Below, piece after piece: positions 30,545 through 50,508 of a stretch of 64,000 nucleotides of DNA (positions within the stretch are counted from its first letter, which is position 1; each line of letters starts with the position of its first letter). The stretch is taken from the NCBI GenBank assembly GCA_965205265.1, contig CBDBGH010000003.1, forward strand, positions 3,904,001-3,968,000. Direction: 5' to 3'. A model generated the notes under the pieces. It worked only from the letters and a program-made list of their open reading frames with translations. It was not told the DNA's origin and searched no databases. The position numbers and the translations under genes were made by a program. Origin of the DNA: Alphaproteobacteria bacterium. Its GTDB lineage: Bacteria > Pseudomonadota > Alphaproteobacteria > Bin95.

Positions 30545-30790
30545 TAAGACTTGCGTTTTCAGAAAGTGTGCTATTATGGGTTCGAGGGAAGCGGCATCCA
30601 TGGACCGCGTCCCGCCCGCGCCGGCCCGGTGCGGACCGACCCCGATTCAGCCGACAGGCGAAGTGCGCCCTGTGCCCGCCTCGCGCACGCGCAATCAGGC
30701 GCGCGAACCGCGCCGCCGCGAAACGCCCGCCCGCCCGCGCACAGGCGCCCGCGCAGGATGACGCGCGAATAAGGGTCGCTCCCCGCCGGG
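30545..30790 (+). repeat. Conserved promoter plus leader, copy A (copy B at about 50270-50508, minus strand)
   Basis: Shared blocks AGACTTG..GTGTG.TAT.ATGG..AGGGAAGCGG and GCCTCGCGC.CGCGCAATCAGGCGCGCGAACCGCGCCGC.GCG.AACGCCCGCCCGC..GCACAGGCGCCCGCGC. Confidence 0.85.
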
Positions 30791-30835
30791 CCGGTGTGCC
30801 GGATGAACGCGAACCGGAACGAAGGAGCCGCACCC

Positions 30836-31333
30836 ATGCCCGTGCTCGACCCGACCCTCTCCCTCTCCTCCCGCCAGGAAGCCTTCTGCAATCACTACCA
30901 TGACAAAACACGAGTTAACATGACATTCCGTGACACGCCGCAACAGCCTGTCCAACCGGCGTCGTCCCGGACGGCGCGAAGCAGCCTGCCCCGGACCCCG
31001 ATCCGGGGTCGATCCGGGACCTCAGGCGGCCCGGCGTCATTCCGGCTGGAGCGCAGCGGACGGGACCGCACCGGCAGGCGACCTGCCCCGGCCGAGGACA
31101 CTTACGACTCGGAGCAGTTCCCCGGCGAGTGGGCCGACGGAGACCGCCCGAGCGAGGAGGAGCGGGCCGGGGGCGTGGAAACCGACTGGCTCTACCAGCG
31201 CCGCAACGACTATGCCGAACTCCACGACCCCTGGCCGCCGGAGAACATCGAACGCCGCCAGGCGGACAGCCTCAACCGGCTCGAAAGGGCCGGCCCCTTC
31301 AACCTGCCCGCCCCCGACCATGACATTTCATGA
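30836..31333 (+). CDS. Orphan protein with small-terminase-like N-terminal motif (possibly internally deleted)
   Basis: RBS GAAGGAG; starts MPVLDPTLSLSSRQEAFCNHY, resembling the TerS L-x-x-KQ-x-x-FC-x-x-Y motif. Confidence 0.5.
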   Translation: MPVLDPTLSLSSRQEAFCNHYHDKTRVNMTFRDTPQQPVQPASSRTARSSLPRTPIRGRSGTSGGPASFRLERSGRDRTGRRPAPAEDTYDSEQFPGEWADGDRPSEEERAGGVETDWLYQRRNDYAELHDPWPPENIERRQADSLNRLERAGPFNLPAPDHDIS

Positions 31334-31413
31334 CATCCCATGACGTGGCGCGGGGGACCGCTGCAATTCCCCTCCTCCCCTGCCTGCGAGAAAGATCAGG
31401 AGGGGGTAGTACC

Positions 31414-31525
31414 AGTGGCCTCGACTTCGAACTCATGTCTTCTTCTCGTCATGCCCGGACTTGTTCCGGGCATCCAAGCGGCCGCTCGGTGAAGGTGGTT
31501 GAGAGAGATGCCCGGAACAAGTCCG
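31414..31525 (+). repeat. 112-bp direct repeat, left copy (IS1634 target duplication)
   Basis: Matches 33442-33553 by eye. Confidence 0.92.
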
Positions 31526-33441
31526 CCTGACTTCGACGGTTGATTCGCATAAGTAGTTGATATTGCCTGGTTCTCATTTCGGCTAGGCACTACATCCGGC
31601 ATTTCTTCGAGCCGTGCTTCGTCGACGGTCAGGCGAGTTGATACGGGGTGATCGTCAGGGGCAGCCCCATGGTTGCGTAAATCTGCTCCGCCGCCGGTGT
31701 CGGCTTCGAGGGGATGACGTAGCGGTTGCCCGATTGCCGACAGCGCAGCAGGGAGCACTGGCGGTGGACGAGGGCGGAGCGGATGACCTCCGGGGACATC
31801 CGCCGCTTCTGGATGGCGACGCGGTACGCAAGGTGTCGAACGCAGGCGAAGGCCAGGAAGGCGATGGCGATGTGAGCGCGGATCCGGTCCGGGTTCCAGT
31901 GCCAGATGGGACGTATCTTCAGGTCGTGTTTGGTGATCCGGAAGCTCTCCTCGACCTGCCAGAGCCCCTGGTAGTGAGCCATCACTTCGGTGACGCGCGC
32001 GTCGCGCAGATTGGTGATGACGCCGGTGAGCCCGTCCCATCGTGCGGCCTCGGCGATCTTCTCCGGGTTCACCGTGAGCCGTGCGTCGCCCTCGACGGCG
32101 ATGAAGCGCTTCGCCCCGTGATTGGAGAGCAGTTCCCTGGGATTGTCGCTGCGGGCCAGCCTGTCGAGCAGGCGTTCCACCTGATGGCGGCGCTCGTGCG
32201 CGTCCTTGCGTGCGCGCTGGGGGCAGAAGACGACGATCAGGCGACGGCCCTTGTACTCCCACTCGCCGACCCGGCGGTCCTGTGAGCCCTCCAGCGGGGC
32301 ATAGGTCCCGGGGTCGAGAACCTGCCCCAGCAGCGCGAGCGGCAGCTTGCGCAGCCGCGCGCCGACGACATACTCGCCGCCGATGGCGTCCATGGCGTCG
32401 AGGTTGTCGGCGCTCAGCATGCCCCGGTCGGCCACGCATACCGTGCGCTCCACCTGGTGGCGGCGCTGCATGTCCTGCAGGACCGGGACCATGCTGTGTC
32501 CCTCGTAGGTGGCGCCGGGGAAGACCTCGTAGCTGATCGGCAGCCCTTCGCGCGTCACCATCAGCGCCAGCAGAACCTGCGAGTCCTTGTGTTTGCCGTC
32601 CTTGCTGAAGCCGTGCTGGCGAAGCTCGTCCTCGGCGGCCGTCTCGAAGTAGAGCGTGGTGCAATCGAAGAAGAGGATCGCGACCGGCTCCGGCAGCAGC
32701 GACCGGCTCGCCTCGCCGACGCGCGTGCGCAGTCGCTCGATCACCGTCGCGTCGAGCTGATCCATCATCCGGTAGACCTTCTCGAGCGGAAGACTCACGC
32801 CGAAGTCCTCCTCGAGCCGGCGCACGCTGCCCCGCTTGCTGTCGGGGTTGGCTACCCGCGCCATCACCACATGGAACAGCGCGTCATGGGAGGCCCGGTA
32901 GCGCGAGCGCGGCAGCAGCGCGTCGAGGCCCAGCAGCCGGTAGATCTCGCCATAGACCTCGTGGATGCCTGTGATCAGGCGCTGCTCCTCTTCAAGCTGC
33001 TTGAGGTCGACCGGGAGTTCCTCCTTGCCGTCCCCCCGGCGGCCGACACGGATCGCCTGCTCAGCGATCTTCTCGGGCGCAAACAATGCCGGCTGACGCT
33101 CGTCCTCCAGCTTCGCCTTGACGTACTCGCCGAGCTGCCTCAGGCGCTCGAGCTCGTCCTCGTCCATGGCCACGCCGACATGGCGGACGATGCGCTGTCG
33201 GACCTTGCCGCCGTCGCGCACGGCCTCGACGATCTGGACCGAGCGTCGCGGGCTGTTGGGGGAGGTCTTGATGCGCACGAACATGGGGGGAGTGTAGCGC
33301 GTGGCGGAGGCATTGACAGTCTCAAAGATTTACTAGGCACTACAACGCAGCTTGACCGCACCGCAACTGCCAACTCATTGGCTTTACTGAAAACTCCAGA
33401 CGCGAGATCGGTCAGAAGTCAGCCCAACCGTCGAAGTCAGG
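31526..33441 (-). mobile_element. IS1634-family insertion sequence
   Basis: 17-bp perfect TIRs CCTGACTTCGACGGTTG / CAACCGTCGAAGTCAGG enclosing one transposase. Confidence 0.92.
31629..33284 (-). CDS. IS1634-family DDE transposase
   Basis: FFDCTTLYFE, GFSKDGK, VADRGM, YQGLWQVEESFRITK, RPIWH, RIRAHI. Confidence 0.93.
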   Translation of the reverse strand: MFVRIKTSPNSPRRSVQIVEAVRDGGKVRQRIVRHVGVAMDEDELERLRQLGEYVKAKLEDERQPALFAPEKIAEQAIRVGRRGDGKEELPVDLKQLEEEQRLITGIHEVYGEIYRLLGLDALLPRSRYRASHDALFHVVMARVANPDSKRGSVRRLEEDFGVSLPLEKVYRMMDQLDATVIERLRTRVGEASRSLLPEPVAILFFDCTTLYFETAAEDELRQHGFSKDGKHKDSQVLLALMVTREGLPISYEVFPGATYEGHSMVPVLQDMQRRHQVERTVCVADRGMLSADNLDAMDAIGGEYVVGARLRKLPLALLGQVLDPGTYAPLEGSQDRRVGEWEYKGRRLIVVFCPQRARKDAHERRHQVERLLDRLARSDNPRELLSNHGAKRFIAVEGDARLTVNPEKIAEAARWDGLTGVITNLRDARVTEVMAHYQGLWQVEESFRITKHDLKIRPIWHWNPDRIRAHIAIAFLAFACVRHLAYRVAIQKRRMSPEVIRSALVHRQCSLLRCRQSGNRYVIPSKPTPAAEQIYATMGLPLTITPYQLA

Positions 33442-33553
33442 AGTGGCCTCGACTTCGAACTCATGTCTTCTTCTCGTCATGCCCGGACTTGTTCCGGGCA
33501 TCCAAGCGGCCGCTCGGTGAAGGTGGTTGAGAGAGATGCCCGGAACAAGTCCG
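33442..33553 (+). repeat. 112-bp direct repeat, right copy
   Basis: Matches 31414-31525 by eye. Confidence 0.92.
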
Positions 33554-33689
33554 GGCATGACGAACGGGGGCCATCGGGGCGACGGGCGTCGAAGCCGGGA
33601 CGACCCCCGCTTTCAGCGAGGGCAGGCGGTTGGGGCGCGGCGGGCGGCCGCTCTTGTCCATCGCATCCGGCCTGTCGCCGGCGCTGCGG

Positions 33690-34091
33690 TCAGCCCGCCT
33701 CCGCCGCCCTCGGGTCGTCCACATGCAGGTGCTCGGTCGGCTGCGGGGTCGCGGTCATCACCTTGACCCCGTCTTCCGAGGTGAAGCGGTGCCAGCAGCC
33801 CTGCGGCACCACCAGGAGGGCGCCGGCGGTGAGCCGGTGCGACTCGATCTCGTCGTCCACGATGATGTCGAAGCGGGTCGAGCCTTCGAGAATCTGCACG
33901 ATCTCGTCGCCCTTGAGGTGCCGCTCCCAGCCGCTGGAGCCGCTGAAATGCGCGGCGAACAACCCGCCGTCGCGGAAGTCGGCGAGCTTCCGGAAGGAAG
34001 CCTGCGCCTCCGCTTCCGTGGTGTGGGCGCCGCGCCCTTCCAGCAGGACCAGATCGTCCAGGTCACGGCGAAGGTCGAGCGGTTCGATCAT
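33690..34091 (-). CDS. Cupin domain protein
   Basis: WERHLKGDEIVQILEG, VVPQGCWHRF. Confidence 0.85.
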   Translation of the reverse strand: MIEPLDLRRDLDDLVLLEGRGAHTTEAEAQASFRKLADFRDGGLFAAHFSGSSGWERHLKGDEIVQILEGSTRFDIIVDDEIESHRLTAGALLVVPQGCWHRFTSEDGVKVMTATPQPTEHLHVDDPRAAEAG

Positions 34092-34113
34092 GGATAACTC
34101 CGGTATGGCGCCG

Positions 34114-34752
34114 TCACACCGGCGTGTCGCCGCAAATGGTGACGCGGTGCATGATGCGGGTTTCGCCGGGATAGTCGTCGAGCGCGTAATGCTGGGTGCA
34201 GCGGTTGTCCCAGAAGGCGACGGACCCCTCCTCCCAGCGGAAGCGGCACTGGAATTCGGGCTTGATCGAGTGACTGCGCAGCCAGTCGAGCAGCGGCTCG
34301 CTCTCCGCGTCCGTCAACCCGTCGAAATGCTGGCAGTGGCCGCCGACATAGAGCGCCTTGCGGCCCGTTTCCGGGTGGGTGCGCACCACCGGATGCGAGG
34401 AGGTGGTCTGCACATTGCCGGGGTCCTTGACCTGCATGGAGGTGCGCCCCGCATACATCTCCTTGCGCGTCTTGCCGCCCGCGCTCTTGAACCGGTCGCC
34501 GACGGAGATCGCGCGGAGCCCGGCCAGCGCCTCCTTGAGGCCGTCCGAGAGCGTCTCATAGGCGAGATACTGGTTGGTGAACAGCGTGTCGCCGCCCCTG
34601 GACGGCACCTGCTTGGCGTAGAGGATGGTGCCCATGGCGGGCTGGGGCGAGAACATCTGGTCCGAATGCCAGGCGCCGCCGAAATTCTTCGTATCCGCCG
34701 GCGTCTTCTTGATTTCGAGAAGCTCCGGATGGTCGTCCATGCCCTTCATGAA
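34114..34752 (-). pseudogene. TauD/TfdA dioxygenase, 3' part (interrupted by IS1595 element)
   Basis: WHSD, GGDTLF, HPVVRTHPETG, WDNRCTQH; N-terminus lies at 38999-39222. Confidence 0.9.
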
Positions 34753-34782
34753 GGGGATTATGTAGGAAAGTGCCGAGACGGG

Positions 34783-35055
34783 CTACTCGTCGGCCGCCTC
34801 TAGCTGCGTCGCCGACTGCGGGTTCCACGGCAAGACAACACCAAGGCGGAGATCAAGCCGCTCTATGGTCGTTGGTGCCAGCGGGTCATCGGCCCGAATG
34901 GCGGATTCGTAGATGTGCATCGAGCTTTCGGGGCGCGATACGAACATGTATTCGCCCCACTCATTCTCGCCGAATTCAACGCGGAAACCTTCGTCCCGCA
35001 GCCAGTCGGCATACTGGCGGTTGACCGGGAAATCCGGGAAGGGGAATGCGGGCAC
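34783..35055 (-). CDS. Small hypothetical protein, possibly HicA-like fold
   Basis: About 90 aa, starts 2 bp after the HicB-like stop; pattern WLRDEGFRV...L.PTTIERL..RLG suggests alpha-beta-beta-beta-alpha. Confidence 0.5.
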   Translation of the reverse strand: MPAFPFPDFPVNRQYADWLRDEGFRVEFGENEWGEYMFVSRPESSMHIYESAIRADDPLAPTTIERLDLRLGVVLPWNPQSATQLEAADE

Positions 35056-35057
35056 CG

Positions 35058-35369
35058 TTACGCCGCCAGCGTCTGTTCCGCCACGCCGTGCCTGTCGTAT
35101 ATAGTGCCGCGCACCACATCTGGAGGACCAGACTTCCACAACTCAAAGAACCGGGCCGGCGCGCGCATGATCCCTTGGAAGGCGAAGCTGCTGTGTTCTC
35201 GGGAATGGTCGAGTTCGGCCCGGTAGGCGCATTTCAGGCCATTCTCGGCTTCCTCTCTCGTCCGGCCCTGTGCGCCGATGAAGTGCTCCAGACAGATTGC
35301 GACCCACGCGCCTTCCTCGCTAAAGAGCACATAGCGCAGTTCATTGGCCCGGTGCATCTCTCCGGTCAT
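35058..35369 (-). CDS. HicB-like antitoxin domain protein
   Basis: EEGAWVAICLEHFIGAQGRTREEAENGL matches the HicB N-terminal pattern. Confidence 0.65.
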   Translation of the reverse strand: MTGEMHRANELRYVLFSEEGAWVAICLEHFIGAQGRTREEAENGLKCAYRAELDHSREHSSFAFQGIMRAPARFFELWKSGPPDVVRGTIYDRHGVAEQTLAA

Positions 35370-35440
35370 AGACTGTCTCCCATTGCAGTGGGGACATACT
35401 AATTCCGGGCGAAAAAAGTGCCAATCCCGGAATTTCGCGT

Positions 35441-35468
35441 TTGACATACTTTGGCACTTACCTATATT
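35441..35468 (+). promoter_or_regulatory. Sigma70-type promoter for the transposase-MTase-REase unit
   Basis: TTGACA-N16-TATATT about 28 bp upstream of the transposase ATG. Confidence 0.55.
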
Positions 35469-35495
35469 TGAATGTGAAAGCAGGGAGCTACGGGA

Positions 35496-36482
35496 ATGGC
35501 GAAGAAAAAAGCGGCAGGCAAGGCGCACCGGACGGGGATCAGCATGGTGGAGCTATTCCGCCGCTGGCCGGACGACGCGGCGGCCGAGGCGCGGTTCATT
35601 GAGCGCCGCTGGCCTGACGGTATTCACTGTCCGCATTGCGGAAGCTGCAATGTGCAGACCGGCGCGAAGCACAAGACCATGCCCTACCGCTGCCGGGAGA
35701 AGGAATGCGCCAAGCGGTTTTCCGCGAAGACCGGGACCGTCATGGAAGGTTCAAAGCTGGGCTTCCAAGTCTGGATGATTGCGACCTATCTGCTTTCGAC
35801 AAACCTCAAATCGGTATCGTCCATGAAGCTGCACCGGGACTTGAAGATCAATCAGCGCAGCGCGTGGTTCCTTGCGCACCGGCTGCGGGTTGCCCTGTCG
35901 GAGCGCGAAGGGCCGTTCGAGGGACCGCTGGAGGCGGACGAGGCGTATTTCGGCGGCCGCCGGTCCAACATGTCCAAGAGCAAGCGCAAAGAGCTTGCCG
36001 GGCGCGGCACAGTGGGGAAAACCGCCGTGGTCGGAGTGAAGGACCGCGCGACAAATCGTGTCGCAGCGAAGGTTGTCCCTTCCACCGACGGCCCGACTCT
36101 GCAATTTTTCGTCCGAGTCCATGCCGGGGAGGACGCCGTGATCTACACGGACGAGCATGGGGCATATGCTGGGCTCGGCGCGGAGTTCAAGCACGAAGCC
36201 GTCAATCATAGCGCGGGCGAGTATGTGCGCGGCATGGCGCACACGCAGGGCATCGAGTCCTTCTGGTCGATGCTGAAGCGGGCGCACAAGGGAACCTTCC
36301 ACAAGTTTTCGCCCAAGCATCTTGATCGGTATGTCGGCGAGTTCTCCGGCAGACACAATGTCCGGGACGCTGACACCATCGACATCATGGCGACCTTCGC
36401 CGCCGGGGCCGTTGGCAAGCGCCTTCGCTACCGGGACTTGATCGCCGACAACGGGTTGCCGTCCGGGGCGCGCAGCGCATGA
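35496..36482 (+). CDS. IS1595-family transposase
   Basis: RWPDGIHCPHCG...YRC..C zinc ribbon, EADEAYFGG, YTDE, VNHSAGEYV, GIESFWS. Confidence 0.95.
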   Translation: MAKKKAAGKAHRTGISMVELFRRWPDDAAAEARFIERRWPDGIHCPHCGSCNVQTGAKHKTMPYRCREKECAKRFSAKTGTVMEGSKLGFQVWMIATYLLSTNLKSVSSMKLHRDLKINQRSAWFLAHRLRVALSEREGPFEGPLEADEAYFGGRRSNMSKSKRKELAGRGTVGKTAVVGVKDRATNRVAAKVVPSTDGPTLQFFVRVHAGEDAVIYTDEHGAYAGLGAEFKHEAVNHSAGEYVRGMAHTQGIESFWSMLKRAHKGTFHKFSPKHLDRYVGEFSGRHNVRDADTIDIMATFAAGAVGKRLRYRDLIADNGLPSGARSA

Positions 36483-37876
36483 CGACGCAAGCCGTCTCTC
36501 CGCACGGTGGTCCCGTCAGAGAGCGACAGGCACTGGCGGCGCGCTTCGCACCTCGCTTGGCCACGAACGAACTCTACTGCCGTCGGATTGTTTCATACCA
36601 AGGGAATCGCAAGGCACCGGGCTTGCGCTGGATGAAATACAAGGAAGGCTTTTCCAGCGAGCTTGTGACTGACTTGATCCAGCAAGAGCGGCCGACCGCC
36701 GTTCTGGACCCCTTCGCCGGGATTTGCACAACGCCACTGGTCGCTGCCGGGCAAGGAATCGAGGCGACGGGCATTGAGATCATGCCGGTAGGGGTTTCGG
36801 CTGGCACGGCTATCGCCGAAGCTGCGAACGGGCTTTCGCAATCCGATTTCGACAGGCACTCCGCCGCGCTCTTGCAGGCGACCAGGGCAAGGGGCAGGGC
36901 AGCCAGCTTCGCATTCCCGCATGTGCGGATAACCGAGGGCGCATTCGCCGACAAGACAGAGCGGGAGATCGCCGCCGCCCGCCGGTTCCTTTCGCGCATG
37001 GAAGATGACGGCTTGCGGACACTGTTGGATTTCGCCTGCATGTCGGTTTTGGAGGAAGCCAGCTATACGCGGAAGGACGGCCAATATCTACGATGGGACC
37101 GCCGCGCCCCGCGACAGTTGCGATCCTCGTTCGACATAGGGCCTATAGCTGGTTTCAGCGACGCTCTGGAACGGCGGATAGGCGAGATCGCAGCCGACAT
37201 TCCGGCGCTCAAAAAGCAGTTCGGGCAAGGGTATCCAACCCTATTGACTGGCTCATGTCTTGAACTGCTTAGGACCATCCCGGACGGCGCGTTCGACATG
37301 GTGGTGACCTCGCCACCCTACGCGAACCGTTATGACTACACGCGGACCTACGCGCTGGAACTCGCATGGATGGGCTTCGACCAAGCAGGCTTTTCAGCTC
37401 TCCGCCAGCGGATGCTCTCGGCCACGGTGGAGAACAAGGCCAAGACGGAAACGCTCGCCGCGATTTATGGGGACAACCGGGCCACCTTGGAGCGCGCCGC
37501 TCGCCTGTATGAGGCACAGGGGGCCGTGCATGAGGTTCTGGGCATTCTGCGGAAGCGGCAAGGCGAGTTGAGCAACCGGAACGTCCTGACCCTGATCGAA
37601 CAGTATTTCTTCGAGATGGCCGTGGTCATAGCCGAGTTCGGGCGCATCGTGCGCCCCGGCGGGTCGGTCTTCATGGTCAATGACAATGTTCAATATCACG
37701 GCGAGGAACTACCAGTGGACTTCATTCTAGCCGACTTCGCCGAAGGCGCGGGGTTCCGTTGCGATCAGATATGGAAGCTCGCAAGAGGCAAGGGCAATTC
37801 GAGCCAGCAGATGGCGCGGTTCGGGCGGCGCGAACTGCGGAAATGTGTCTATAGGTGGGTTCGTTCCTATGACTGA
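36479..37876 (+). CDS. Site-specific DNA amino-methyltransferase (probably N4-cytosine)
   Basis: W.KYKEGFS, motif I VLDPFAG, motif IV VVTSPPY. Confidence 0.9.
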   Translation: MTTQAVSPHGGPVRERQALAARFAPRLATNELYCRRIVSYQGNRKAPGLRWMKYKEGFSSELVTDLIQQERPTAVLDPFAGICTTPLVAAGQGIEATGIEIMPVGVSAGTAIAEAANGLSQSDFDRHSAALLQATRARGRAASFAFPHVRITEGAFADKTEREIAAARRFLSRMEDDGLRTLLDFACMSVLEEASYTRKDGQYLRWDRRAPRQLRSSFDIGPIAGFSDALERRIGEIAADIPALKKQFGQGYPTLLTGSCLELLRTIPDGAFDMVVTSPPYANRYDYTRTYALELAWMGFDQAGFSALRQRMLSATVENKAKTETLAAIYGDNRATLERAARLYEAQGAVHEVLGILRKRQGELSNRNVLTLIEQYFFEMAVVIAEFGRIVRPGGSVFMVNDNVQYHGEELPVDFILADFAEGAGFRCDQIWKLARGKGNSSQQMARFGRRELRKCVYRWVRSYD

Positions 37877-38777
37877 CGACGCTCTCCGGTCCCGCCTCTT
37901 TTCCGACATTTTGAGACAGCGAAAAGACCGGGCGCAGCGCCGGCTCATTGACACATTCGGCGCAGAACTCGACTTCTGCCCACTCGACGAACTGATGATA
38001 AGCGGCGCGGCCTGGGATCATGTGCAATCGCTCGGCATTGAGCCGAAGGTGGTCTTCGCGCATCCCGACTTGCTGCGGGCGCACCCGACGACCTCGCTCT
38101 ACTATCGCGGGTTGGCGCTGCTTTCCCGCAAGCGGGTTGGCCAAGCAGCCGCGTCAGTGACGAATTGGGAGGACGGGACGCGCTCCACGCCGATTCGAGA
38201 GGGCACGGCCCGCAAGGTCGCTTGCCTCTACAACACCATGATCTCATCGATCATCGAAGGTTCGTCGGATTGGACTTTGGAGAACGGCTACCGGAACATC
38301 GTCGCCACAATGGGCATTTCCATCGACGGAATGTTCCGTAATCAGATAGGCGATGCGGCGGAGGCATTGGTCAAAAGCCGGCTCGTGGAATGGCTGAAGG
38401 CGAAGGACGTCCTTCCGCCGGACAGCCCAGAACATGGCCGGTATCTGCTACCCGGCGACACGCTCATGAATTTCGGCTCGGAGCCAGACATTGAGTTCAT
38501 CCGGAACGACCGGCTTATCGCGACGATTGAGGTAAAGGGCGGCCGCGACCCGGCCGGCGCTCTTGAACGGCTCGGTGCCATGACGAAGAGCTTTGCCGAG
38601 ACGCCGCCGGGCTGTGTCAATTTCCTTGTCGCTGGCGTTATCACGACAGAGATGCGGACGCGCCTCGAAGCCATTGGCAGCGTCAAGGTCTATGAACTGG
38701 ACGACATTGCCCAAGATGGTGCGCTCTGGAACGACTTCACGAATGAGGTCTTCCACCATGCCGTCCGCGTAATCTGA
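37869..38777 (+). CDS. Type II restriction endonuclease, XcyI-like (PD-(D/E)XK)
   Basis: EPDIEF...IEVKGG catalytic motif; VFAHP...YYRGLALLS; overlaps the MTase stop. Confidence 0.78.
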   Translation: MTDDALRSRLFSDILRQRKDRAQRRLIDTFGAELDFCPLDELMISGAAWDHVQSLGIEPKVVFAHPDLLRAHPTTSLYYRGLALLSRKRVGQAAASVTNWEDGTRSTPIREGTARKVACLYNTMISSIIEGSSDWTLENGYRNIVATMGISIDGMFRNQIGDAAEALVKSRLVEWLKAKDVLPPDSPEHGRYLLPGDTLMNFGSEPDIEFIRNDRLIATIEVKGGRDPAGALERLGAMTKSFAETPPGCVNFLVAGVITTEMRTRLEAIGSVKVYELDDIAQDGALWNDFTNEVFHHAVRVI

Positions 38778-38790
38778 CAGGGAGGAAGCC

Positions 38791-38967
38791 ATGACGAAGG
38801 CCAAGCCGGAGCCGCGCGAGGTCCATATCGTGCATCACGACTACCAGCCGAGCAAGGCGCAGTTGGAGGCCGACGCGCGGGTTGAGGCGAGTTTCGAGGA
38901 AGCCGTTGACGCGCTCACGCAGCCAGTCCGCATCCGCAATGTCATCCGGCCGGGGCGCGCTCGCTGA
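38791..38967 (+). CDS. 58-aa hypothetical protein at the right end of the IS1595 element
   Basis: Strong RBS GGGAGG; MTKAKPEPREVHIVHHDYQPSKAQLEADARVEASFEEAVDALTQPVRI; below the ORF-track length cutoff. Confidence 0.65.
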   Translation: MTKAKPEPREVHIVHHDYQPSKAQLEADARVEASFEEAVDALTQPVRIRNVIRPGRAR

Positions 38968-38998
38968 GCGGCCTTCGGCACTCTTCTACATAATCCCC

Positions 38999-39222
38999 TT
39001 CATGAAGGGGTGCAGGTGGATGTCCCCCCAGCGCCGCGCGAAGGCGAGCTGCTGTTCGGGTGTCATGTCCTGCTCGCGGAAGAAGATCACCAGGTTCTCG
39101 TGCAGCGCGCGCCGGATTTCCGCGAAGGTCTCGTCATCGACATTCGCCAGATCGACCCCGCCCACCTCGGCGCCGAGCGCGCCGGCGACGGGCTTCACCT
39201 CGATGCGCTGGAAACCGGACAT
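38999..39222 (-). pseudogene. TauD/TfdA dioxygenase, 5' part
   Basis: IEVKPVAGALGAEVGGVDL...VIFFREQ. Confidence 0.9.
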
Positions 39223-39325
39223 GGAGCCTCTCCTTCCCATGATGACGGCGCGAGCCTATATCGATTTCCGGCCGGGGTCCAAACCCGCCGCGCTGCCGCC
39301 CCGCCTCCGAGGGAGACCGTTCCCC

Positions 39326-39781: not shown

Positions 39782-39798
39782 ACGCCCGCCCGCCGCCC

Positions 39799-41105: not shown

Positions 41106-41120
41106 CCCGAAATGTCCCAA

Positions 41121-41137
41121 CCTGGAATCGGTCTAAA
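41121..41137. promoter_or_regulatory. ICE-like (Irr) box upstream of katG
   Basis: Reverse complement TTTAGAC-CGA-TTCCAGG versus consensus TTTAGAA-N3-TTCTAAA. Confidence 0.45.
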
Positions 41138-41144
41138 TTGTTGA

Positions 41145-43460
<2,316 letters not shown>

Positions 43461-43465
43461 GACCG

Positions 43466-43507
43466 GCGGGGACATCCGGCCCGCGCGGCCGGCCGGATGT
43501 CCCCCGC
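43466..43507. terminator. GC-rich hairpin after katG
   Basis: GGGGACATCCGGCC...GGCCGGATGTCCCC; no U-tract. Confidence 0.5.
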
Positions 43508-43538
43508 AAATCCTTCCGTCCCGGGAAGGTCCGAGCCC

Positions 43539-44888
43539 ATGCGCGATGGCAGCCCCGATCCCCCGGCGCGCCGTCCGCTGGCATGGGACGCGCCGGGGTT
43601 CGACGACCCCGAGGCCATCGACGCCGAGCTCCGGCGGGTGTTCGGCATCTGCCATGGCTGCCGGCGCTGCTCCGGCCTTTGCGACGCCTTCCCGCGCCTC
43701 TTCGCCCTGATCGACAAGGCCCCGTCGAGCGGGCTCGACACGGTCGATCCGGCGGATTTCAAGGCGGTTGCGGACGCCTGCACGCTCTGCGACATGTGCT
43801 TCAGGACCGAATGCCCCTATGTGCCGCCGCACCCCCTGGAGGTGGATTTCCCGCACCTGATGCTGCGCCACCGGGCGGCGGAATTCCGGCGCGGCGCGCG
43901 GCGCTTCGAGGACCGCGAGATCGCCGCGACCGACCGCAACGGCCGCGCGGGCGGCATGGCGGCGCCGCTCGCCAACTGGGCGCTGGACACCGCGAACGAG
44001 CCCCTGCGCACGCTGATCGAAGGGCTCACGGGCGTCCACCGCGAGGCCGCGCTGCCGCGCTTCCACCATGAGAGCCTCGAGCACCGCGCCATGGCGGGCA
44101 GTCCGGCGCTCAACGAGGCCGCCCCCGCCTTCGGGCGCAGGGCCGCGCTCTACGCCACCTGCCTCGGCAATTACAACGAGCCGGAAACCGGGCTCGCCGC
44201 CCGCGCCGTGCTGGCGCGGAACGGCGTCGAGACGCATGTCGTCCATCCCGGCTGCTGCGGCATGCCGCAACTGGAGCTGGGCGATATTGAGACGGCAGCC
44301 CGGCGGGCCGGGCGGATCGCCCCGGAATTGCTGGCGCTCGCCGACGCCGGCTACGACATCGTGGCGCTGATGCCCTCCTGCGCGCTCATGCTGAAGTCCG
44401 AATGGCCGCTGCTGCTGCCCGGCAATGAGGACGCGGCGCGGCTGGCGCGCACGGTGTTCGATCTCAGCGAATATGTGGTGGACATCGCCCGGCGCGAGGG
44501 GCTGGCGGCGGGGCTGAAGCCGCTTGACGGGCCGGTCGCCGTCCATATCGCCTGCCATGCCCGCGCGCAGAATATAGGCCGCAAGGCGGCGGAGCTGCTG
44601 GCGCTCATTCCCGGCGCGGAAGTCGAGGCGATCGAGAGCTGCTCCGGCCATGGCGGCTTCCGGGGGTGCCTCAAGGACAATTTCGAGACCGCGCTCCGTC
44701 TCGGCCGCCCGGTGGCCCGGCAGGCGCTGGAGGCGGGCGGCCCTGTGGTCTCCGAATGCCCGCTTGCCGCCCTGCATATTACGCAGGGCATGGGGCGCCT
44801 CGATCCGGACGCGCCGCCCAGGCGGGTCGGGCACCCGATCCGGCTTCTCGCCCGCGCCTACGGCTTCGAGGAAGACGCCGCACCTTGA
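43539..44888 (+). CDS. GlpC/heterodisulfide-reductase-like Fe-S oxidoreductase
   Basis: CHGCRRC..LC..FP, CTLCDMC...CPYVPPH, CCGMP, CSGHGG. Confidence 0.88.
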   Translation: MRDGSPDPPARRPLAWDAPGFDDPEAIDAELRRVFGICHGCRRCSGLCDAFPRLFALIDKAPSSGLDTVDPADFKAVADACTLCDMCFRTECPYVPPHPLEVDFPHLMLRHRAAEFRRGARRFEDREIAATDRNGRAGGMAAPLANWALDTANEPLRTLIEGLTGVHREAALPRFHHESLEHRAMAGSPALNEAAPAFGRRAALYATCLGNYNEPETGLAARAVLARNGVETHVVHPGCCGMPQLELGDIETAARRAGRIAPELLALADAGYDIVALMPSCALMLKSEWPLLLPGNEDAARLARTVFDLSEYVVDIARREGLAAGLKPLDGPVAVHIACHARAQNIGRKAAELLALIPGAEVEAIESCSGHGGFRGCLKDNFETALRLGRPVARQALEAGGPVVSECPLAALHITQGMGRLDPDAPPRRVGHPIRLLARAYGFEEDAAP

Positions 44889-45541
44889 TCGCCGACCTCT
44901 TCAAAGCCTTTGCGCAACTTTCCGACCGGCGCTTCCGCCGCGTGGTGCTGTTTTCCTGCCTGCTGGCCGCGCTGCTGCTGGCCGCGCTCGCGGCAGGCGC
45001 CGGCTGGGCGCTTGGCGGGCTAACCGGCATCGGCTGGCTCGACGTCGCGGCGGGGCTTGCCGGAGGCGCAGCGGCGCTGGCAGCGGGCACCATGCTCTTC
45101 CCGGCGGCGGCGGCGGCCTTGCAGGGCCTGTTCCTGGAGCGCGCCGCGAGCGCGGTCGAGGCCCGCCATTACCCGGGTCTCGGGACGCCCAGGGCGCAGG
45201 GCTGGGGCGAGACGCTCCGCCAGACCGCCTACTTCGCCGGCGCCGCGCTCGGCATCAACCTCCTGCTGCTGCCGGTCTGGCTGTTCGTGCCGCCCCTGGG
45301 GCTCCTGCTGTTCTGGCTGGCGAATGGCTGGCTCTGCGGGCGTGAGTATTTCGAGGCGGCCGCGCTCCGCCGGCTCGAACCGGAGGCCGCCCGCGCGCTC
45401 CGCCGCCGCCACCGCTTCCGCGTGTGGCTCGCAGGCGTCGCCATCGCCTGGCTGATGACCCTGCCGCTCGCCAACCTCGCCGCGCCCGCCATCGGCACGG
45501 CCTTCATGCTGCACCGCTTCGAGCGCCTGCGGAGGCTGTGA
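44885..45541 (+). CDS. EI24/CysZ-like membrane protein
   Basis: AVEARHYP, NGWLCGREYFE; TTG start overlaps upstream stop. Confidence 0.8.
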   Translation: MIADLFKAFAQLSDRRFRRVVLFSCLLAALLLAALAAGAGWALGGLTGIGWLDVAAGLAGGAAALAAGTMLFPAAAAALQGLFLERAASAVEARHYPGLGTPRAQGWGETLRQTAYFAGAALGINLLLLPVWLFVPPLGLLLFWLANGWLCGREYFEAAALRRLEPEAARALRRRHRFRVWLAGVAIAWLMTLPLANLAAPAIGTAFMLHRFERLRRL

Positions 45542-45559
45542 GCGGCGCCCGCGCGCCGT

Positions 45560-47074
45560 TCAGGTCACGCGGCTTCGCACATGGCCCGGCATGTCTCCGA
45601 CGACGATATGCCCTCCGTCACCATCCTCGTGCCAGCAATAGTAGATGCGCAGGCACCGCGCCGGGTCGCGGGTATTGCCGCCGCTCTTGATATGCCAGTC
45701 GGCCCGCAACCGCTTCCCCTGCCAGTCGAACTCGAACGAATCGCCGCCGCTCCTGTCGTTGCGGACGCCGGAACCGGCCGGGACCGGGCCCTGCAGGCTG
45801 TTCCCCGTCCCCTCCAGCCGCGCCTGGCGGTAGTCGCCGGCCAGCCACGCCAGGCATTGCGCTGCAAGCCCGACATCCTCGTAACGCGCCTTCTTGATCG
45901 AACCGAAGGCGCGCGGCGACAGGGCAAGACGACCGTCCAGTTGCGTCTCGCACCAATGGGCGAACTCGCCCCAGGACGCGGGCAGCGGCGGGTCGGCGGT
46001 CCCGGCCGGGGCTCCCGTGTCCTCTTCCATCGCGCTGCCAGCCGCCGGGGGGGCGTCCCGCTTCTCTCCGGTTCGCCCTGCGGCCCGGGCCTTTCGGCGC
46101 TTTCCGGCCTCCGGACCCGGACGCTCCGGAGGCTCGCCCGCCTCGACCGCCGCCGAGGCCGCGGCCATCCGGGCAAGCAGCGTCTCCACTGAGGCAAGCT
46201 GGCGGTTCCTTTCCGCTTCGAGTTCCGCCAGGGCCTCCGCCTCCCTCGCGATCGCCGACCAGGGTGCGCCGTCGGCCCTCTGCCGTTCGAACTCCTTCTC
46301 CTTCGCCGCCAGCCCTATTTCCGCCTCGGCCAGCGCATCGACCGGCGTGTGGGCTTCTTGCGCGATTTCGGCCAGCGCCGCCAATTGCGCGGCTTCGAGC
46401 GTGTCGAGGCGCTCCAGCACCTCAGCGGCGCGGCCCAGGTCGGAAAGAGCCTCGAGCAGGATCCGTATATCGACGCGGCTTCGCTCCAGTTCCGCAGCCT
46501 GTTTCCGGACTTCGCTGCCGGCCTCCAAAAGCGCCTCGGCGGCGGCCTCTATCCGCTCGACCGCGTCCGGCGTCGGGCGGTCCAGCTCGTCCAGAAGGCT
46601 GCGCAGTTCCGCGCCGGCCGATTTCCATCGTTCTTCGGCAAGCGGCGCCTGGCGGGCCTTTGCCTCTCTTTCGACCCGCCGCATGGCCGCGATGATGTCG
46701 CGCAGATCGCGCTCGGCGGTGGCGTCGCCGAACAGGTCGACAGGCGCGTCGAGTATGTCGTCATAAGAGAACAATTCGGGAATCTTCTGGACCAGCCACC
46801 GGCTCGCGCGATAGGTGAAAGCCTTTTCCCTGTCCTTCTTCTTTTTCGACCCGAGAAACCTTCGGTCGAGCCCCGCTGTGAATTCGCCGTCGCGCCGGAA
46901 TTTGTGCAGCAGCGCCTGGTAAAACAGTTCGTCGTCGTTCCTTTGCGCCTCCGCGATCCCGGTTCCGGCCAACAGGTCCCAATGCTCGCGCCTGAGCGAC
47001 GCCGCAACCGGGAACACCTGTTTCAGGATTTTCCAGGTCAGCCCGCCCTGAACGATAGTCTCGCTGTCCGGCAT
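45560..47074 (-). CDS. Hypothetical protein: unique N-terminus, coiled coil, RelE-like C-terminal domain
   Basis: 504-aa ORF with RBS GGAGGAG; C-term WHIKSGGNTRDPARCLRIYYCW...IVVGDMPGH. Confidence 0.7.
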   Translation of the reverse strand: MPDSETIVQGGLTWKILKQVFPVAASLRREHWDLLAGTGIAEAQRNDDELFYQALLHKFRRDGEFTAGLDRRFLGSKKKKDREKAFTYRASRWLVQKIPELFSYDDILDAPVDLFGDATAERDLRDIIAAMRRVEREAKARQAPLAEERWKSAGAELRSLLDELDRPTPDAVERIEAAAEALLEAGSEVRKQAAELERSRVDIRILLEALSDLGRAAEVLERLDTLEAAQLAALAEIAQEAHTPVDALAEAEIGLAAKEKEFERQRADGAPWSAIAREAEALAELEAERNRQLASVETLLARMAAASAAVEAGEPPERPGPEAGKRRKARAAGRTGEKRDAPPAAGSAMEEDTGAPAGTADPPLPASWGEFAHWCETQLDGRLALSPRAFGSIKKARYEDVGLAAQCLAWLAGDYRQARLEGTGNSLQGPVPAGSGVRNDRSGGDSFEFDWQGKRLRADWHIKSGGNTRDPARCLRIYYCWHEDGDGGHIVVGDMPGHVRSRVT

Positions 47075-47109
47075 GAAAAGCGGCTCCTCCCCTTCGCCCG
47101 GCCCGCCCC

Positions 47110-48186
47110 TCAGATATGCCGGACATTCTCCGGGGCGGGGGCGATTTCCCTGCGTTCGACGCGCTTCACCACCTCGACGATGGCGCGGTTGGCGGGGGTG
47201 TCGAGGCCGAGGCGGACCGCATAGTCCACCACGAGCCCGTTGATGAAGTCGATCTCCGTGCGCCGGCCCTTCCGGATGTCCTGGCCCATGGAGGGGCGGT
47301 CGGTGGCCGAGCGGCCCTGCGCATTGCGCTCCAGCACCGCCTCGATCTCGGTCATCGCCTCGTTGCTGCCTTCCGCCGCTTCCGCGACGCGCTGCGGGTC
47401 CATGCCGTAGAGCTTTTCCAGCGTAAAGCCGTGCGCAAGCCCGGTGCGGATCGCCTCGCCGGCGATGCGGATGGCGAGGCGGCGGGTATAGTCGAGCCGG
47501 TCCGCCTCAACGCCGCCGAGGCCGGTCGCCGCCGACATCGGGTTGCGCATGGAGTTGACGACCAGCTTCGACCAGCGCTCGCCCCAAAGGTTGGAGGTGG
47601 CTTTCGCGCTGTCCACATGGCCCAGCATTTCCGCGACGAGCCGCGCGCGTTCCGTGATCCGGCCGTGCGGCTCGCCCACGCGGAAAACGGTGTGCCTCTC
47701 CCCGCCGAGCTGCACATTGCGGCGCACCTCGCCGGGCGCGTGCAGATCGACCGAGATCGCACTCGCGATCGAGCCCAGGGTCTTGCCCCAGCCGACGACG
47801 CCGGCGATCCGCTCCTCGTTGATGCCGTTCTGGAGCGAGACGACGAAGCCGTCCGGCGCCAGATATTGCCGGATCATCTCCGTCGCCCAGACCGTGTCGT
47901 AGGACTTGGCGCAGACGAACGCGATATCGACCGGGCGCTCGCGCGAGAGCCGCTCCAGTTCGGTGACGTGCCAGGCCTCGACCGGCTGGGTGAAGCACTC
48001 GGCTTCCGTCATGCCGGTGAGCTTCAGCCCGTCGCGGCGCATGGCGTCCACATGCTCCGGCCAGAAATCGACCAGGATCGGCGCGTAGCCGGCCCTGGTC
48101 AGGTGCCCGCCGACATGGGAGCCGACGGCTCCGGCGGAGACGATCGCGATCTTCGGCCCGCCTTCGGGCGCGGTCTTGCTGTTCAT
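47110..48186 (-). CDS. 2-dehydropantoate 2-reductase (ApbA/PanE) family
   Basis: AGAVG, KSYDT, SLQNG, WSKL..N, SMGQD..KGRRTEIDFING. Confidence 0.9.
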   Translation of the reverse strand: MNSKTAPEGGPKIAIVSAGAVGSHVGGHLTRAGYAPILVDFWPEHVDAMRRDGLKLTGMTEAECFTQPVEAWHVTELERLSRERPVDIAFVCAKSYDTVWATEMIRQYLAPDGFVVSLQNGINEERIAGVVGWGKTLGSIASAISVDLHAPGEVRRNVQLGGERHTVFRVGEPHGRITERARLVAEMLGHVDSAKATSNLWGERWSKLVVNSMRNPMSAATGLGGVEADRLDYTRRLAIRIAGEAIRTGLAHGFTLEKLYGMDPQRVAEAAEGSNEAMTEIEAVLERNAQGRSATDRPSMGQDIRKGRRTEIDFINGLVVDYAVRLGLDTPANRAIVEVVKRVERREIAPAPENVRHI

Positions 48187-48218
48187 GGAAACTCCGGAAG
48201 GTCTCGGGGGAACAGGCC

Positions 48219-49076
48219 TCAGGAGGGCCGGTCGCCCTCTATGGTGCAGCGGTGCATGTGGCGGCGGTAGCCGTGATAGTCGTTGAGCGCGAAATGGTGC
48301 GTGCAGCGGTTGTCCCAGAGCGCGACCGAGCCCGGCTCCCAGCGGAACCGGCAGGTGAACTCCGGCCGCGCGATATGCTCGCAGAGCCAGTCGATCCAGG
48401 GCCGGCTTTCGGCCTCGGTCCAGCCCTCGAAGCGCACCGTGTGGGCGCGGTTGAGGTAGAGCGCCTTCTCGCCGGTGTCGGGGTGGGTGCGGACCACCGG
48501 ATGCCAGGCTTCCAGCGTCTCCTCCTTGTCGAGGCCGATTGCGGTCATCGCGCCCTTGAATTTGACGAATTGGCCGGCCCGCCCGGCCTCCGCATAGCGG
48601 ATTTTCGCGCTGGAGAGGCCCCGCAACCCGGCAAGCGCCGCCTTCATGCCGTCCGAGAGCGCGTCATAGGCGAGCTTGGTGTTGGCGAACAGCGTGTCGC
48701 CGCCATGCGGCGGCGTCTCGACGGCGTAGAGCAGGGTGCCGAGCGGCGGCCTCTCCAGATAGGTGGTGTCGGAATGCCAGAGGCCGCCGAAATTGAAGGT
48801 CTCGTCCGGCTCCTTGATAACCGGGATCACCTCCGGGCATTCCTCCAGCCCGGCGACGAAGGGATAGCGGTTGCAGGGGCCGAAGCGCGCGGCGAAATCG
48901 CGCTGCCCGGACGGCGTCAGCTTCTGGCCGCGGAAGAAGATCACCCGGTGTTCGAGGAAGGCGCGGTGGATTTCCGAGAAGACGCTGTTGCCCAGCGGCC
49001 CCGCAAGGTCCACGCCCCCGATTTCGGCCCCGAGCGCGCCTGCAACCGGCGCAACCTCGATTTCGCGATAGTCCAT
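48219..49076 (-). CDS. TauD/TfdA alpha-ketoglutarate-dependent dioxygenase (intact)
   Basis: GALGAEIGGVDL, WHSDTT, GGDTLFAN, WDNRCTHH. Confidence 0.93.
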   Translation of the reverse strand: MDYREIEVAPVAGALGAEIGGVDLAGPLGNSVFSEIHRAFLEHRVIFFRGQKLTPSGQRDFAARFGPCNRYPFVAGLEECPEVIPVIKEPDETFNFGGLWHSDTTYLERPPLGTLLYAVETPPHGGDTLFANTKLAYDALSDGMKAALAGLRGLSSAKIRYAEAGRAGQFVKFKGAMTAIGLDKEETLEAWHPVVRTHPDTGEKALYLNRAHTVRFEGWTEAESRPWIDWLCEHIARPEFTCRFRWEPGSVALWDNRCTHHFALNDYHGYRRHMHRCTIEGDRPS

Positions 49077-49102
49077 CGCCTCCCCCCGTCCCGTCGGGAA
49101 GC

Positions 49103-49177
49103 TGGAGCGGGCGATGGGGATCGAACCCACGGCACTCGGCTTGGGAAGCCGATGCTCTACCACTGAGCTACGCCCGC
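49103..49177 (-). tRNA. tRNA-Gly (CCC)
   Basis: GCGGGCG-TAGCTCAGTGGTAGAGC-A-TCGGC-TTCCCAA-GCCGA...GTTCGATC...CGCCCGC-T-CCA cloverleaf. Confidence 0.96.
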
Positions 49178-49430
49178 TTCCGCTTGTCATTCTGCCCCGC
49201 CCGCTCCGCCTGTCAACCGCGCGGCGGCCGGCCGACGCCGGTGACATGTCATGTTCTGTCATGAGGCGCCTGAGCCTCCCTGGCGCTGTGTCATGAAATG
49301 TCATGTTCTGCATGTGTGTGATGCATGTTCCATGAACCGTTCGAGCATAGCGCTCGGCTCATCGACCTCTTTCCCGCCTGCCCTCACCGGCGCCCCGGAC
49401 GCCCGCAGAGCCTCCCCCGGCCACTCGTCC

Positions 49431-49640
49431 CGTCATGCCCGGACTTGTTCCATTGCTGTCCGGTTTAGCCATTGGGCGAGGCTGAACGGGAGTCTGCCGG
49501 GGGTTTCGGGGGCGCGCGGCGTCCCCGGTCGGCCTCCTGTCCGTCATGCCCGAACGCCCCCCTTCGACAGGCTCAGGGCAGGCTCTTTCGTCATACCCGG
49601 ACTTGTTCCGGGCATGACGATATGGGGGCGGCCATGACGA
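49431..49640. repeat. REP-like palindromes with a MITE left end
   Basis: 49451-49620 closely matches 29015-29180; TIR CATTGCTGTCCGGTTTAG directly follows GGACTTGTTC. Confidence 0.85.
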
Positions 49641-49656
49641 CTTGGGGACCGGGACA

Positions 49657-50253
49657 CTACCGCCCGCCGGCGCTCCCGCCTCCTTCTGCGGCCTCCCTTG
49701 CGGCGAGTTCTGCGGCCTCGCGGCGTTCCTGGCGGGCGAGCCAGTCGTAGAACGCGGGCGTGGTCAGCTTGCCCACATACTGGCGCTCACCGAAGTTGTA
49801 GTAGTCCTCGCTGCCGTCGTAACTGTCCTCGTCCGGCACCAGCGGCCCGAAGCGACGCTCCTGCTCCGCATGCCAGGCCCGGAACTCCGGCGTCTGCTGG
49901 CTGCCGACATAGACCTCGTCGAAATAGTGGTATTCGTCCTCGCTGCCGTCATAGCCGGTCTCGGGCTCCGGCTCCGGAACCCAGTCGTCGAGGTCGTCCG
50001 CCGGCTCTTCGGCAGGCAGAGGCTCCGGCTCGGGCATGCGGGCGGCGGCCCAGTCGAGGAGGTTGAGGAGCTGGCGCAGATGGGAGAGCGCGGCGCGCCC
50101 GGCGCGATGGCGTTCGGCCGAGGCACGGTTGTCCTCCGGCGGCGGCGCTGCGCCCATGTCCTGGGCATAAGCTTCGGCAAGGGCTGCGGCGGCCGGGGCC
50201 AGCTTTTCGGCCAGCATCGCCGCCAGTTCGGGGCGGGGGTCGGGTGCGGTCAT
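49657..50253 (-). CDS. Orphan protein with helical N-terminus and two acidic C-terminal repeats
   Basis: RBS GAAGGAGGAG; repeat YDGSED.Y.....YVG...TP.F..W.A.QERR occurs twice. Confidence 0.65.
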   Translation of the reverse strand: MTAPDPRPELAAMLAEKLAPAAAALAEAYAQDMGAAPPPEDNRASAERHRAGRAALSHLRQLLNLLDWAAARMPEPEPLPAEEPADDLDDWVPEPEPETGYDGSEDEYHYFDEVYVGSQQTPEFRAWHAEQERRFGPLVPDEDSYDGSEDYYNFGERQYVGKLTTPAFYDWLARQERREAAELAAREAAEGGGSAGGR

Positions 50254-50269
50254 CGTCTCTCCTCCTTCG

Positions 50270-50508
50270 ACGGGGAGCGTGTCCCTGTTTCGCGCGTCTC
50301 CCGCGCGGGCGCCTGTGCCGGCGCGGGCGGGCGTTACGCAGCGGCGCGGTTCGCGCGCCTGATTGCGCGCGCGAGGCGGCGGGCGCACCTCTCCCGTCGG
50401 CTTCTCGGGTGTTTTCAGAAACGGCGCTGCGCAGCACCCGGGGAGGCGGCTCCGGAAACCGCTTCCCTGGGGACCATCATACCACACTCCGCCAGATGTC
50501 AAGTCTCA
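50270..50508 (-). repeat. Conserved promoter plus leader, copy B
   Basis: TTGACA-N15-TATGAT with extended -10 TG, then a leader homologous to 30545-30790. Confidence 0.85.

Follow-up and report, generated by a model that had tools for sequence, protein, structure and literature searches.

A multicopy family of minimal cassettes with small-terminase-like genes and phased CATGACA arrays in an alphaproteobacterial genome, and their possible likeness to terS-pac modules

The stretch of DNA analysed here, hereafter the window, comprises 64,000 nucleotides (C3:3904001-3968000) of a 5.70-Mb, three-contig alphaproteobacterial assembly (GCA_965205265.1; genome 98.98% complete), and contains two loci, A and B, each of which is a small cassette with a promoter, a GC-rich leader, one open reading frame (ORF) and an array of short phased repeats. 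An earlier note on this DNA had placed the two loci at 30545-31345 and about 49240-50508, facing opposite ways, and both were present at these coordinates and in these orientations. The common layout described there was also confirmed and consists of an AT-rich upstream region, a -35 element, an extended -10 element (TGnTAT[G/T]AT), a 5' hairpin, the leader, a GAAGGAG ribosome-binding site, an ATG start codon, the ORF and CATGACA boxes spaced 10 nt apart. When the promoter and leader of the two loci are aligned, the mean column identity is 76%, including a nearly identical block of ~110 nt. The homology claimed for the promoters stands as far as this alignment and the extended -10 element found in both are concerned, although a consensus promoter scan calls neither of them (A has a weak -35 element and B a 15-nt spacer). 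The parts of the two cassettes, with the basis of each assignment, are:

30480-30550, plus strand: AT-rich left flank of cassette A, where homology among A-type copies starts (copy-number profile, full-copy alignments, upstream listing)
30551-30577, plus strand: cassette A promoter, with -35 TTGCGT at 30551-30556, a 15-nt spacer and extended -10 TGcTATTAT at 30569-30577 (sequence reading)
30586-30835, plus strand: GC-rich leader of cassette A, with the 5' hairpin at its start and a near-invariant core at 30650-30790 (alignment, copy search)
30821-30827, plus strand: ribosome-binding site GAAGGAG of cassette A (sequence reading)
30836-31333, plus strand: ORF A, 165 aa (ORF translation, tblastn)
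30899-30935, plus strand: internal array of ORF A (CATGACA, CATGACA, CGTGACA), marking where a short A-derived cassette ends on the right
31088-31330, plus strand: remnant of the protein A C-terminus within ORF A, residues 218-303 at 79% identity (tblastn)
31319-31345, plus strand: terminal array of cassette A, three CATGAC boxes 10 nt apart, with the ORF A stop codon TGA inside the second box
50476-50502, minus strand: cassette B promoter, with TTGACA at 50502-50497, a 15-nt spacer and TGgTATGAT at 50484-50476; B-type copies begin here
50254-50468, minus strand: cassette B leader, 5' hairpin and shared core (alignment with A, copy-number profile)
50268-50262, minus strand: ribosome-binding site GAAGGAG of cassette B (sequence reading)
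49657-50253, minus strand: ORF B, 198 aa plus stop codon, one of 9 intact copies (ORF 50253-49657)
49430-49650, minus strand: repeats resembling repetitive extragenic palindromic (REP) elements, between ORF B and the right end of the cassette (copy-number profile)
49247-49425, minus strand: cassette B right end, made up of a conserved block and, beyond it, two CATGACA clusters at 49305-49289 and 49263-49247 (alignments, motif scan)
49224-50593, minus strand: segment absent from the orthologous site in the congener G008, an empty site (congener comparison)

The left flank of cassette A also carries a conserved GTTC motif and a palindrome-like block, AATATTTC. Other B copies lack the REP-like repeats at 49430-49650 and, by comparison with these copies, the repeats are an insertion from outside the ancestral cassette.

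The expectation that these loci belong to a multicopy family with a common promoter and leader was borne out by a blastn search with the leader core (30650-30790), which returned not two but 71 copies, all on C3. The ORFs downstream of the other copies are non-random, being A, B or their first ~20 codons, and the cargo is of only two kinds, a 303-aa protein A (7 intact copies) and a 198-aa protein B (9 intact copies). Units range from 0.45 to 1.3 kb and hold one gene or none; full A-type units are ~1.25 kb long and share 92-99% identity, whilst in 38 units the distance from core to array is at most 330 nt, which leaves no real ORF, and the indels that follow the start codon in short units are not multiples of three. 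Of the 71 leader cores, 62 have a like-oriented array no more than 1,061 nt downstream. Across the chromosome there are 85 clusters of the two-box motif CATGACA-N2-4-CATGAC and none of its reversed pattern, and the strict form CATGACA-N3-CATGACA occurs 103 times, against 0 in the control. The arrays comprise 2-5 boxes at 10-nt spacing and overlap the stop codon in near and distant homologues alike, an arrangement of the kind found in packaging (pac) sites, with short phased repeats beside the small terminase gene (terS); in some cassettes a second CATGACA cluster follows ~45 bp beyond the first. In 36 short units the -35 TTG (0.9) and positions A2 and T6 of the -10 element (0.8) are conserved above the spacer (0.3-0.6), which argues that the promoters of short units are under selection. 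A literature search, supplementary files aside, found no description of such cassettes.

Several further observations concern the cassettes as a set. Two other insertion sequence (IS) families, of ~34 and ~20 copies, interrupt some of them, and a search for an autonomous longer version of the cassette yielded only long units into which other IS elements had inserted. The arrays are a preferred insertion site of a small element that has inverted ends: 9 of its 17 copies abut AACATGA or TCATGTTT (e.g., C3 980248-980495, 1205672, 3619636 and 4009077), with an apparent 8-bp duplication at one site, so the arrays are themselves a target of another mobile element. None of the 71 leader cores lies beyond position 4,632,918 of C3, and the two arrays in the region from 4.64 to 5.46 Mb duplicate ones near the start of the contig; the unit at C3 351 is identical to that at 4,632,918, lexA occurs twice (at 193 kb and 5.30 Mb) and the estimated contamination is 7.28%. 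The terminal part of C3 is possibly duplicated or chimeric in the assembly. The cassettes do not behave as mobile promoters for downstream genes (43 units co-oriented with the neighbouring gene, 40 opposed), nor do they integrate at tRNA genes (of 85 arrays, 2 lie within 500 bp of one, and random placement gives a mean of 1.0). The idea that the three boxes provide downstream fusions with a start codon in every frame was also rejected, as long ORFs started by arrays mostly have a non-coding G+C content at third codon positions and the distant arrays use CCTGACA, which has no ATG; the in-box TGA stop codon still stands.

The link to terminases resides in the full-length A gene. Its paralogue P0001 matches Pfam Terminase_2 (PF03592) over residues 11-87 with 50.7 bits against a cut-off of 26.1, the 7 intact A copies are the only Terminase_2 matches in the genome, and protein A also matches small-terminase PHROGs. 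The AlphaFold model of protein A (mean predicted local distance difference test score, pLDDT, 69.6) has a confident helical N-terminal part of ~110 residues, for which the top Foldseek matches are the G1P small terminases of SF6/SPP1 type (3zqq, 4zc3 and 2cmp), with a target TM-score of 0.82 and 39-40% identity over the DNA-binding domain at weak E-values (0.16-0.26). The stop codon again falls within the array: in an alignment of 20 A homologues that extends to ~45% identity, 13 terminate in HD-x-S/T/A, which places the stop codon inside an array box. Boxes of the form C(A/C)TGACA or similar occur 3-4 times at 10-nt spacing in a distant clade, so the conserved core of the box is TGAC(A). Distant stand-alone homologues of A are found among housekeeping genes, purA and patatin being examples. 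Neither PADLOC nor NCBIfam returned a match for A or B, and neither protein belongs to a catalytic family in Pfam, NCBIfam or PADLOC.

ORF A itself is a different matter. It runs from the first 21 codons of A through the internal array and a repeat-derived filler to the last ~86 residues of A in frame, and from this order ORF A is a chimeric, internally deleted remnant of A. The junction at the internal array recurs in 4 other copies. A second copy in the genome shows this in-frame order of parts again, with a shorter linker, and the two in-frame cases hint, weakly, that the fusion may be in use. ORF A (P0003) has no Pfam or PHROG match. Of the suggestion that it begins like a small terminase, what survives is a 21-residue stub of a terminase-like gene, but the ORF as a whole matches no family and is without the helix-turn-helix; likewise, when the profile and fold comparisons with small terminases proposed in the earlier note were made, full-length A passed Terminase_2 and had G1P as its closest fold, but ORF A matched no profile and ORF B gave neither a Pfam match above the cut-off nor a fold match.

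For protein B, the resemblance to small terminases or phage proteins that had been suggested was not upheld, as it has no Pfam match above the cut-off, only a weak match to PHROG 31793 (function unassigned) and no fold match. Its model (pLDDT 76) shows a helical hairpin followed by two beta-hairpin-plus-helix modules, and searches of PDB, the viral fold collection BFVD and the ESM Atlas gave no usable match. These modules coincide with an internal duplication (residues ~100-135 and ~145-180; YDGSED...YVG...TP.F..W...QERR), each repeat predicted as a beta-hairpin and a helix. At least 142 homologues of B exist, none of those listed having a Pfam domain or an informative name (one is named ‘hypothetical protein’), and many also end with the stop codon inside an array box. 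That the proteins of the two loci are unalike was correct: A and B are non-homologous (hhalign probability 0.15%).

A second link, to the SOS response, comes from the sequences upstream of the terminase-like genes in relatives. The repeat GAAC-N7-GAAC, given as the Caulobacter SOS box in Table 1 of PMC9578287, occurs in perfect form upstream of 36 of these 67 genes, comprising 25 of 40 loci with the leader core, where it lies ~25 nt before the start codon, and 11 of 27 loci without it. Members of the distant clade have no GC-rich leader; a CTTGCA-type promoter is followed by GAAC-N7-GAAC just past the -10 element and then by the ribosome-binding site. Within the genome under study both lexA promoters carry GAAC-N7-GAAC, recA has GTTC-N7-ATTC, and there are 98 perfect boxes in all; 8 cassettes have GAAC-N7-G[AG]TC at the homologous place. 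Locus B is without GAAC repeats, and locus A has three at 30805-30820 which, with N8 instead of N7 spacing, look like a degenerate remnant of a LexA box. The best reading of these upstream motifs is that the modules were ancestrally under SOS control. There is precedent for such control in the terS operon of the Staphylococcus aureus pathogenicity islands (SaPIs), which PMC5052747 describes as LexA-controlled.

The distribution of the cassettes was followed in 17 congeneric genomes (the genome under study being G000), the lineage consisting of metagenome-assembled genomes of sponge-associated Rhodospirillaceae or other Alphaproteobacteria. Protein A (7-18 matches each), the leader and 100-320 strict array matches were found together in 13 of the 17 congeners, near-identical A gene copies numbering 5-18 per genome; G001, G003 and G013 have no A, 0-1 arrays and no or weak leader matches, and A is also missing from G008, where 23 arrays occur. 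Copies of A group by genome (in G000, 7/7 at 100/100 support), and the A tree requires 7 label changes; the mean over 200 shuffles was 21.6, and none of them came down to 7. Individual sites are polymorphic. The B site is vacant in G008, and the GC-rich sequence there may include a 7-8-bp duplication (CYGCGCG), this being the only empty site studied at base level, whilst G014 and G007 have a short unit in which the leader and ~19 codons are joined to the right end. In G003, G010, G012, G015 and G016 the flanks of this site are unlinked, the break falling at the unit ends. At the A site, G005 and G007 have a full-length A and G015 has no unit. Taken together, genome-wise clustering, distribution and site polymorphism indicate that the family either proliferates or is homogenised within genomes and is gained or lost whole. 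The cassette end alignments showed no terminal inverted repeats. As a separate observation, in the orthologues of window 48600-51400 from the five genomes with unlinked flanks, the two flanks of cassette B lie several kb apart or inverted; the cassettes may be rearrangement hotspots.

As for the surroundings of the two loci, the neighbouring genes encode a ferritin, a DDE transposase and PhyH and TauD dioxygenases, and the consensus scan found no intrinsic terminators. The sole Rfam match in the window at the gathering score is a tRNA-Gly at 49103-49177, and its consensus-like promoter (TTGACA, 16 nt, CAGAAT; 49189-49216, minus strand) stands directly past the right end of cassette B. An IS with ~62 genome copies occupies 31525-33300 and has a 551-aa ORF with a DDE_Tnp_1 domain (31629-33284, minus strand). 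The REP-like hairpin repeat, a GC-rich inverted repeat with a CCGGG core and ~130 genome copies, lies at 31425-31525 and 49430-49650, thus adjoining cassette A and interrupting cassette B.

The reading which we favour, albeit tentatively and as somewhat short of probable, is that locus A is a decayed A-type copy and locus B an intact B-type copy from a family of minimal cassettes which is proliferating and whose members are terS-pac-like modules. It builds on the observed architecture, copy number, terminase homology, LexA boxes, co-occurrence, genome-wise clustering and insertion polymorphism. The ancestral cassette would have been a stand-alone, LexA-controlled small-terminase-like gene whose stop codon lay within boxes with a TGACA core, one DNA turn apart; in this genus a GC-rich leader of ~250 nt would then have been inserted behind the promoter, an unrelated second cargo, B, would have adopted the same chassis, and most copies would have lost their cargo through internal deletion. 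From the terminase fold, the phasing of the boxes and the strict linkage and co-occurrence of gene and array, we infer that A docks on the array. Protein A, with an SF6 G1P-type helix-turn-helix and long helices, would oligomerise on the phased array in which its gene ends, in the manner of a small terminase at pac, and each cassette would thus be a terS-pac module, comparable to the LexA-controlled packaging module of a SaPI minus the rest of the island, at ~100 chromosomal sites. We further hypothesise that upon DNA damage or infection the modules capture the large terminase of an incoming phage, and that the captured enzyme starts to package host DNA, the outcome being both phage interference and transduction. 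The cassette family of TerS-like proteins that the earlier note had proposed is supported in part, in that the family, the homology of A and the fit with mobility hold, but neither ORF A itself nor ORF B conforms.

A number of results weigh against this reading and it should be considered with caution. A profile search of the genome gave 0 matches to two ATPase families and the nuclease domain of large terminases (PF03354, PF03237, PF20441) or to the HK97 capsid; the absence of large terminase (terL), portal and capsid genes from the window, as noted earlier, accordingly holds genome-wide for terL and the HK97 capsid, whilst the portal is represented by one sub-threshold fragment on contig C2. 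No integrase, attachment (att) site or helper phage was found. Contig C2 was ruled out as a helper phage on account of its plasmid content: this 43-kb contig (L138-L140) is a mobilisable plasmid of ~28.3 kb assembled ~1.5 times, with a MobA/MobL relaxase-helicase, RepA, ParA and a resolvase. Viral contigs yielded only remote relatives of A (4 matches, 28-36% identity) and, since no close homologue of A occurs among them, the helper phage is purely hypothetical. The SOS box of this genome is degenerate, being perfect in 3 of 71 units and in neither window locus, and in units with the GC-rich leader some ~230 nt separate the promoter from the box downstream of it, an odd position for an operator. 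As regards the proteins, the best fold match of A has a weak E-value (0.16), the part of A past residue ~120 (two helical regions and the acidic tail) resembles nothing, and B is without a known fold and is assigned no role by the terS-pac model. Finally, a terS-pac module offers no mechanism for copying to new sites, and a pac function leaves the conserved promoters of cargo-less units unexplained.

Another explanation, which we regard as somewhat unlikely, is that the cassette is a new mobile element. Here the cassette itself would transpose, with the promoter and leader as left end and the array as right end acting as cis sites, A and/or B, as DNA-binding proteins encoded by the element, would recruit a host or IS enzyme, and the cargo-less units would resemble miniature inverted-repeat transposable elements (MITEs). 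The copy number is high and the 38 short units outnumber the 16 intact coding units; short alleles retain both ends and the first ~20 codons; the all-or-none distribution among congeners tracks protein A; copies cluster by genome; the empty site has its possible 7-8-bp duplication; and synteny breaks exactly at the unit ends in the five genomes named above, whilst presence/absence polymorphism and short derivatives fit the non-autonomous mobile cassette which the earlier note had offered as an alternative. However, A and B have no catalytic domain, terminal inverted repeats were not seen, the target duplication is ambiguous in GC-rich sequence at the one empty site, and there is no preference for tRNA genes or orientation. 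Moreover, an A unit occupies the same orthologous site in three species, so the genome-wise clustering may reflect gene conversion and not new insertions.

Two other explanations dispense with packaging. The boxes ATGACA/CTGACA, in arrays genome-wide and at the distant loci L088, L093 and L103, are one base off the -35 element TTGACA of the cassettes' own promoters, and an SOS-linked, terminase-like DNA-binding protein could have been domesticated as a regulator which coats the arrays as a roadblock, nucleoid organiser or repressor acting through these -35-like boxes. Such a role, with no link to packaging, would suit the absence of packaging partners from the genome, the stand-alone homologues among housekeeping genes and the LexA boxes; we nevertheless consider it distinctly unlikely, as the arrays are neither oriented nor spaced consistently with respect to the genes beside them (43 same, 40 opposite) and a regulator would not need 5-18 near-identical gene copies per genome or polymorphic insertion sites. 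Less likely still is a family of RNA genes in which a ~400-nt transcript of leader and 3' block acts as a regulatory or protein-sponging RNA, the ORFs being secondary passengers. It would account for the cargo-less units that hold their promoter key positions whilst the spacers drift, for the post-start indels that are not in threes and for a leader stretch of ~35 nt that is nearly invariant across 62 sequences from many genomes, yet the distant clade has the terminase-like gene and array but not the GC-rich leader. The evidence for a leader RNA structure is mixed. None of 200 shuffles folds as well as the A leader (z-score -4.13), but 15 of 200 do so for the B leader (z-score -1.47), RNAalifold applied to 62 leaders predicted 18 pairs, none of them with a compensatory change, and a helix scan found many alternative CGCG helices among the GC repeats, so that no structure could be fixed. 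The leader has no match in Rfam (Rfam 15), four other units searched at E <= 1 giving only the chance-level ALIL (E = 0.45). In metatranscriptome contigs from four RNA runs the summed leader depth was 85-593, against ~9 in the flanks and 0 in the ORF B body, figures which are uninformative on expression because the ratio equals the copy number and DNA carry-over is possible.

Small terminases are known from phages, gene transfer agents and phage satellites. In the terS-pac reading, a terminase-like gene and a presumptive docking array have been reduced to a 1.25-kb module present in dozens to hundreds of copies, the genomes concerned having yielded neither a large terminase nor a capsid gene. 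Should the modules still engage phage terminases, they would provide a host-encoded route of phage interference and, in addition, very frequent transfer of chromosomal genes in uncultivated sponge symbionts; otherwise they would constitute an element, either mobile or regulatory, with the DNA-binding domain of a terminase as its basis, and both kinds would be novel. Bolder, and in our view rather unlikely, is a self-propagating system not yet described, formed by the terminase-like protein and its phased TGACA arrays. It would be either a mobile element which moves with no recognisable transposase and whose sole gene encodes a DNA-binding protein derived from a small terminase, or a host-wide set of ~100-300 orphan pac sites with SOS-induced stand-alone small terminases that would turn any infecting pac-type phage into a generalised transducer of the symbiont's chromosome.

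Amongst known systems, the G1P small terminases of SPP1 and SF6 come closest, in sequence and in fold, to the DNA-binding domain at the N-terminus of protein A and the helices that follow it; protein A is, however, twice as long, with an extra two helical regions and an acidic tail, and has no adjacent terL. In SPP1 pac, short repeats near terS act as the docking site, whereas in the cassettes the array closes the gene at its 3' end and extends across the stop codon. The pac site of phage P1 has two clusters of a short hexamer repeat around a spacer, to which the cassettes with two CATGACA clusters bear some likeness, although the motif is another one. With MITEs and their parent IS elements, and with REP elements and bacterial interspersed mosaic elements, the cassettes share many short cargo-less copies that keep both ends, an all-or-none distribution among species and genome-wise clustering; they differ from MITEs and IS elements in having no transposase domain, terminal inverted repeats or clear target duplication, and in short copies that keep a functional-looking promoter.

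The packaging module (operon I) of phage-inducible chromosomal islands of the SaPI type is similar in that its small-terminase gene stands apart from a large terminase and is under LexA control, which the boxes in relatives suggest for the cassettes as well. Both are thought to steer the terminase of a helper phage to their own pac, as PMC5052747 describes for the islands. A SaPI, however, is a single island of ~15 kb (~10-15 kb for phage-inducible chromosomal islands in general, which have att sites) with an integrase, a repressor and genes for replication and capsid remodelling, whereas the cassettes hold one gene or none, number from ~70 to several hundred and are not associated with tRNA genes. 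A parallel to the proposed outcome is lateral transduction, in which, in the account of PMC8575950, a chromosomal pac launches headful packaging of neighbouring host genes; there the pac belongs to an integrated phage or island which supplies the machinery, whereas the sites described here are orphans and are roughly a hundredfold more numerous.

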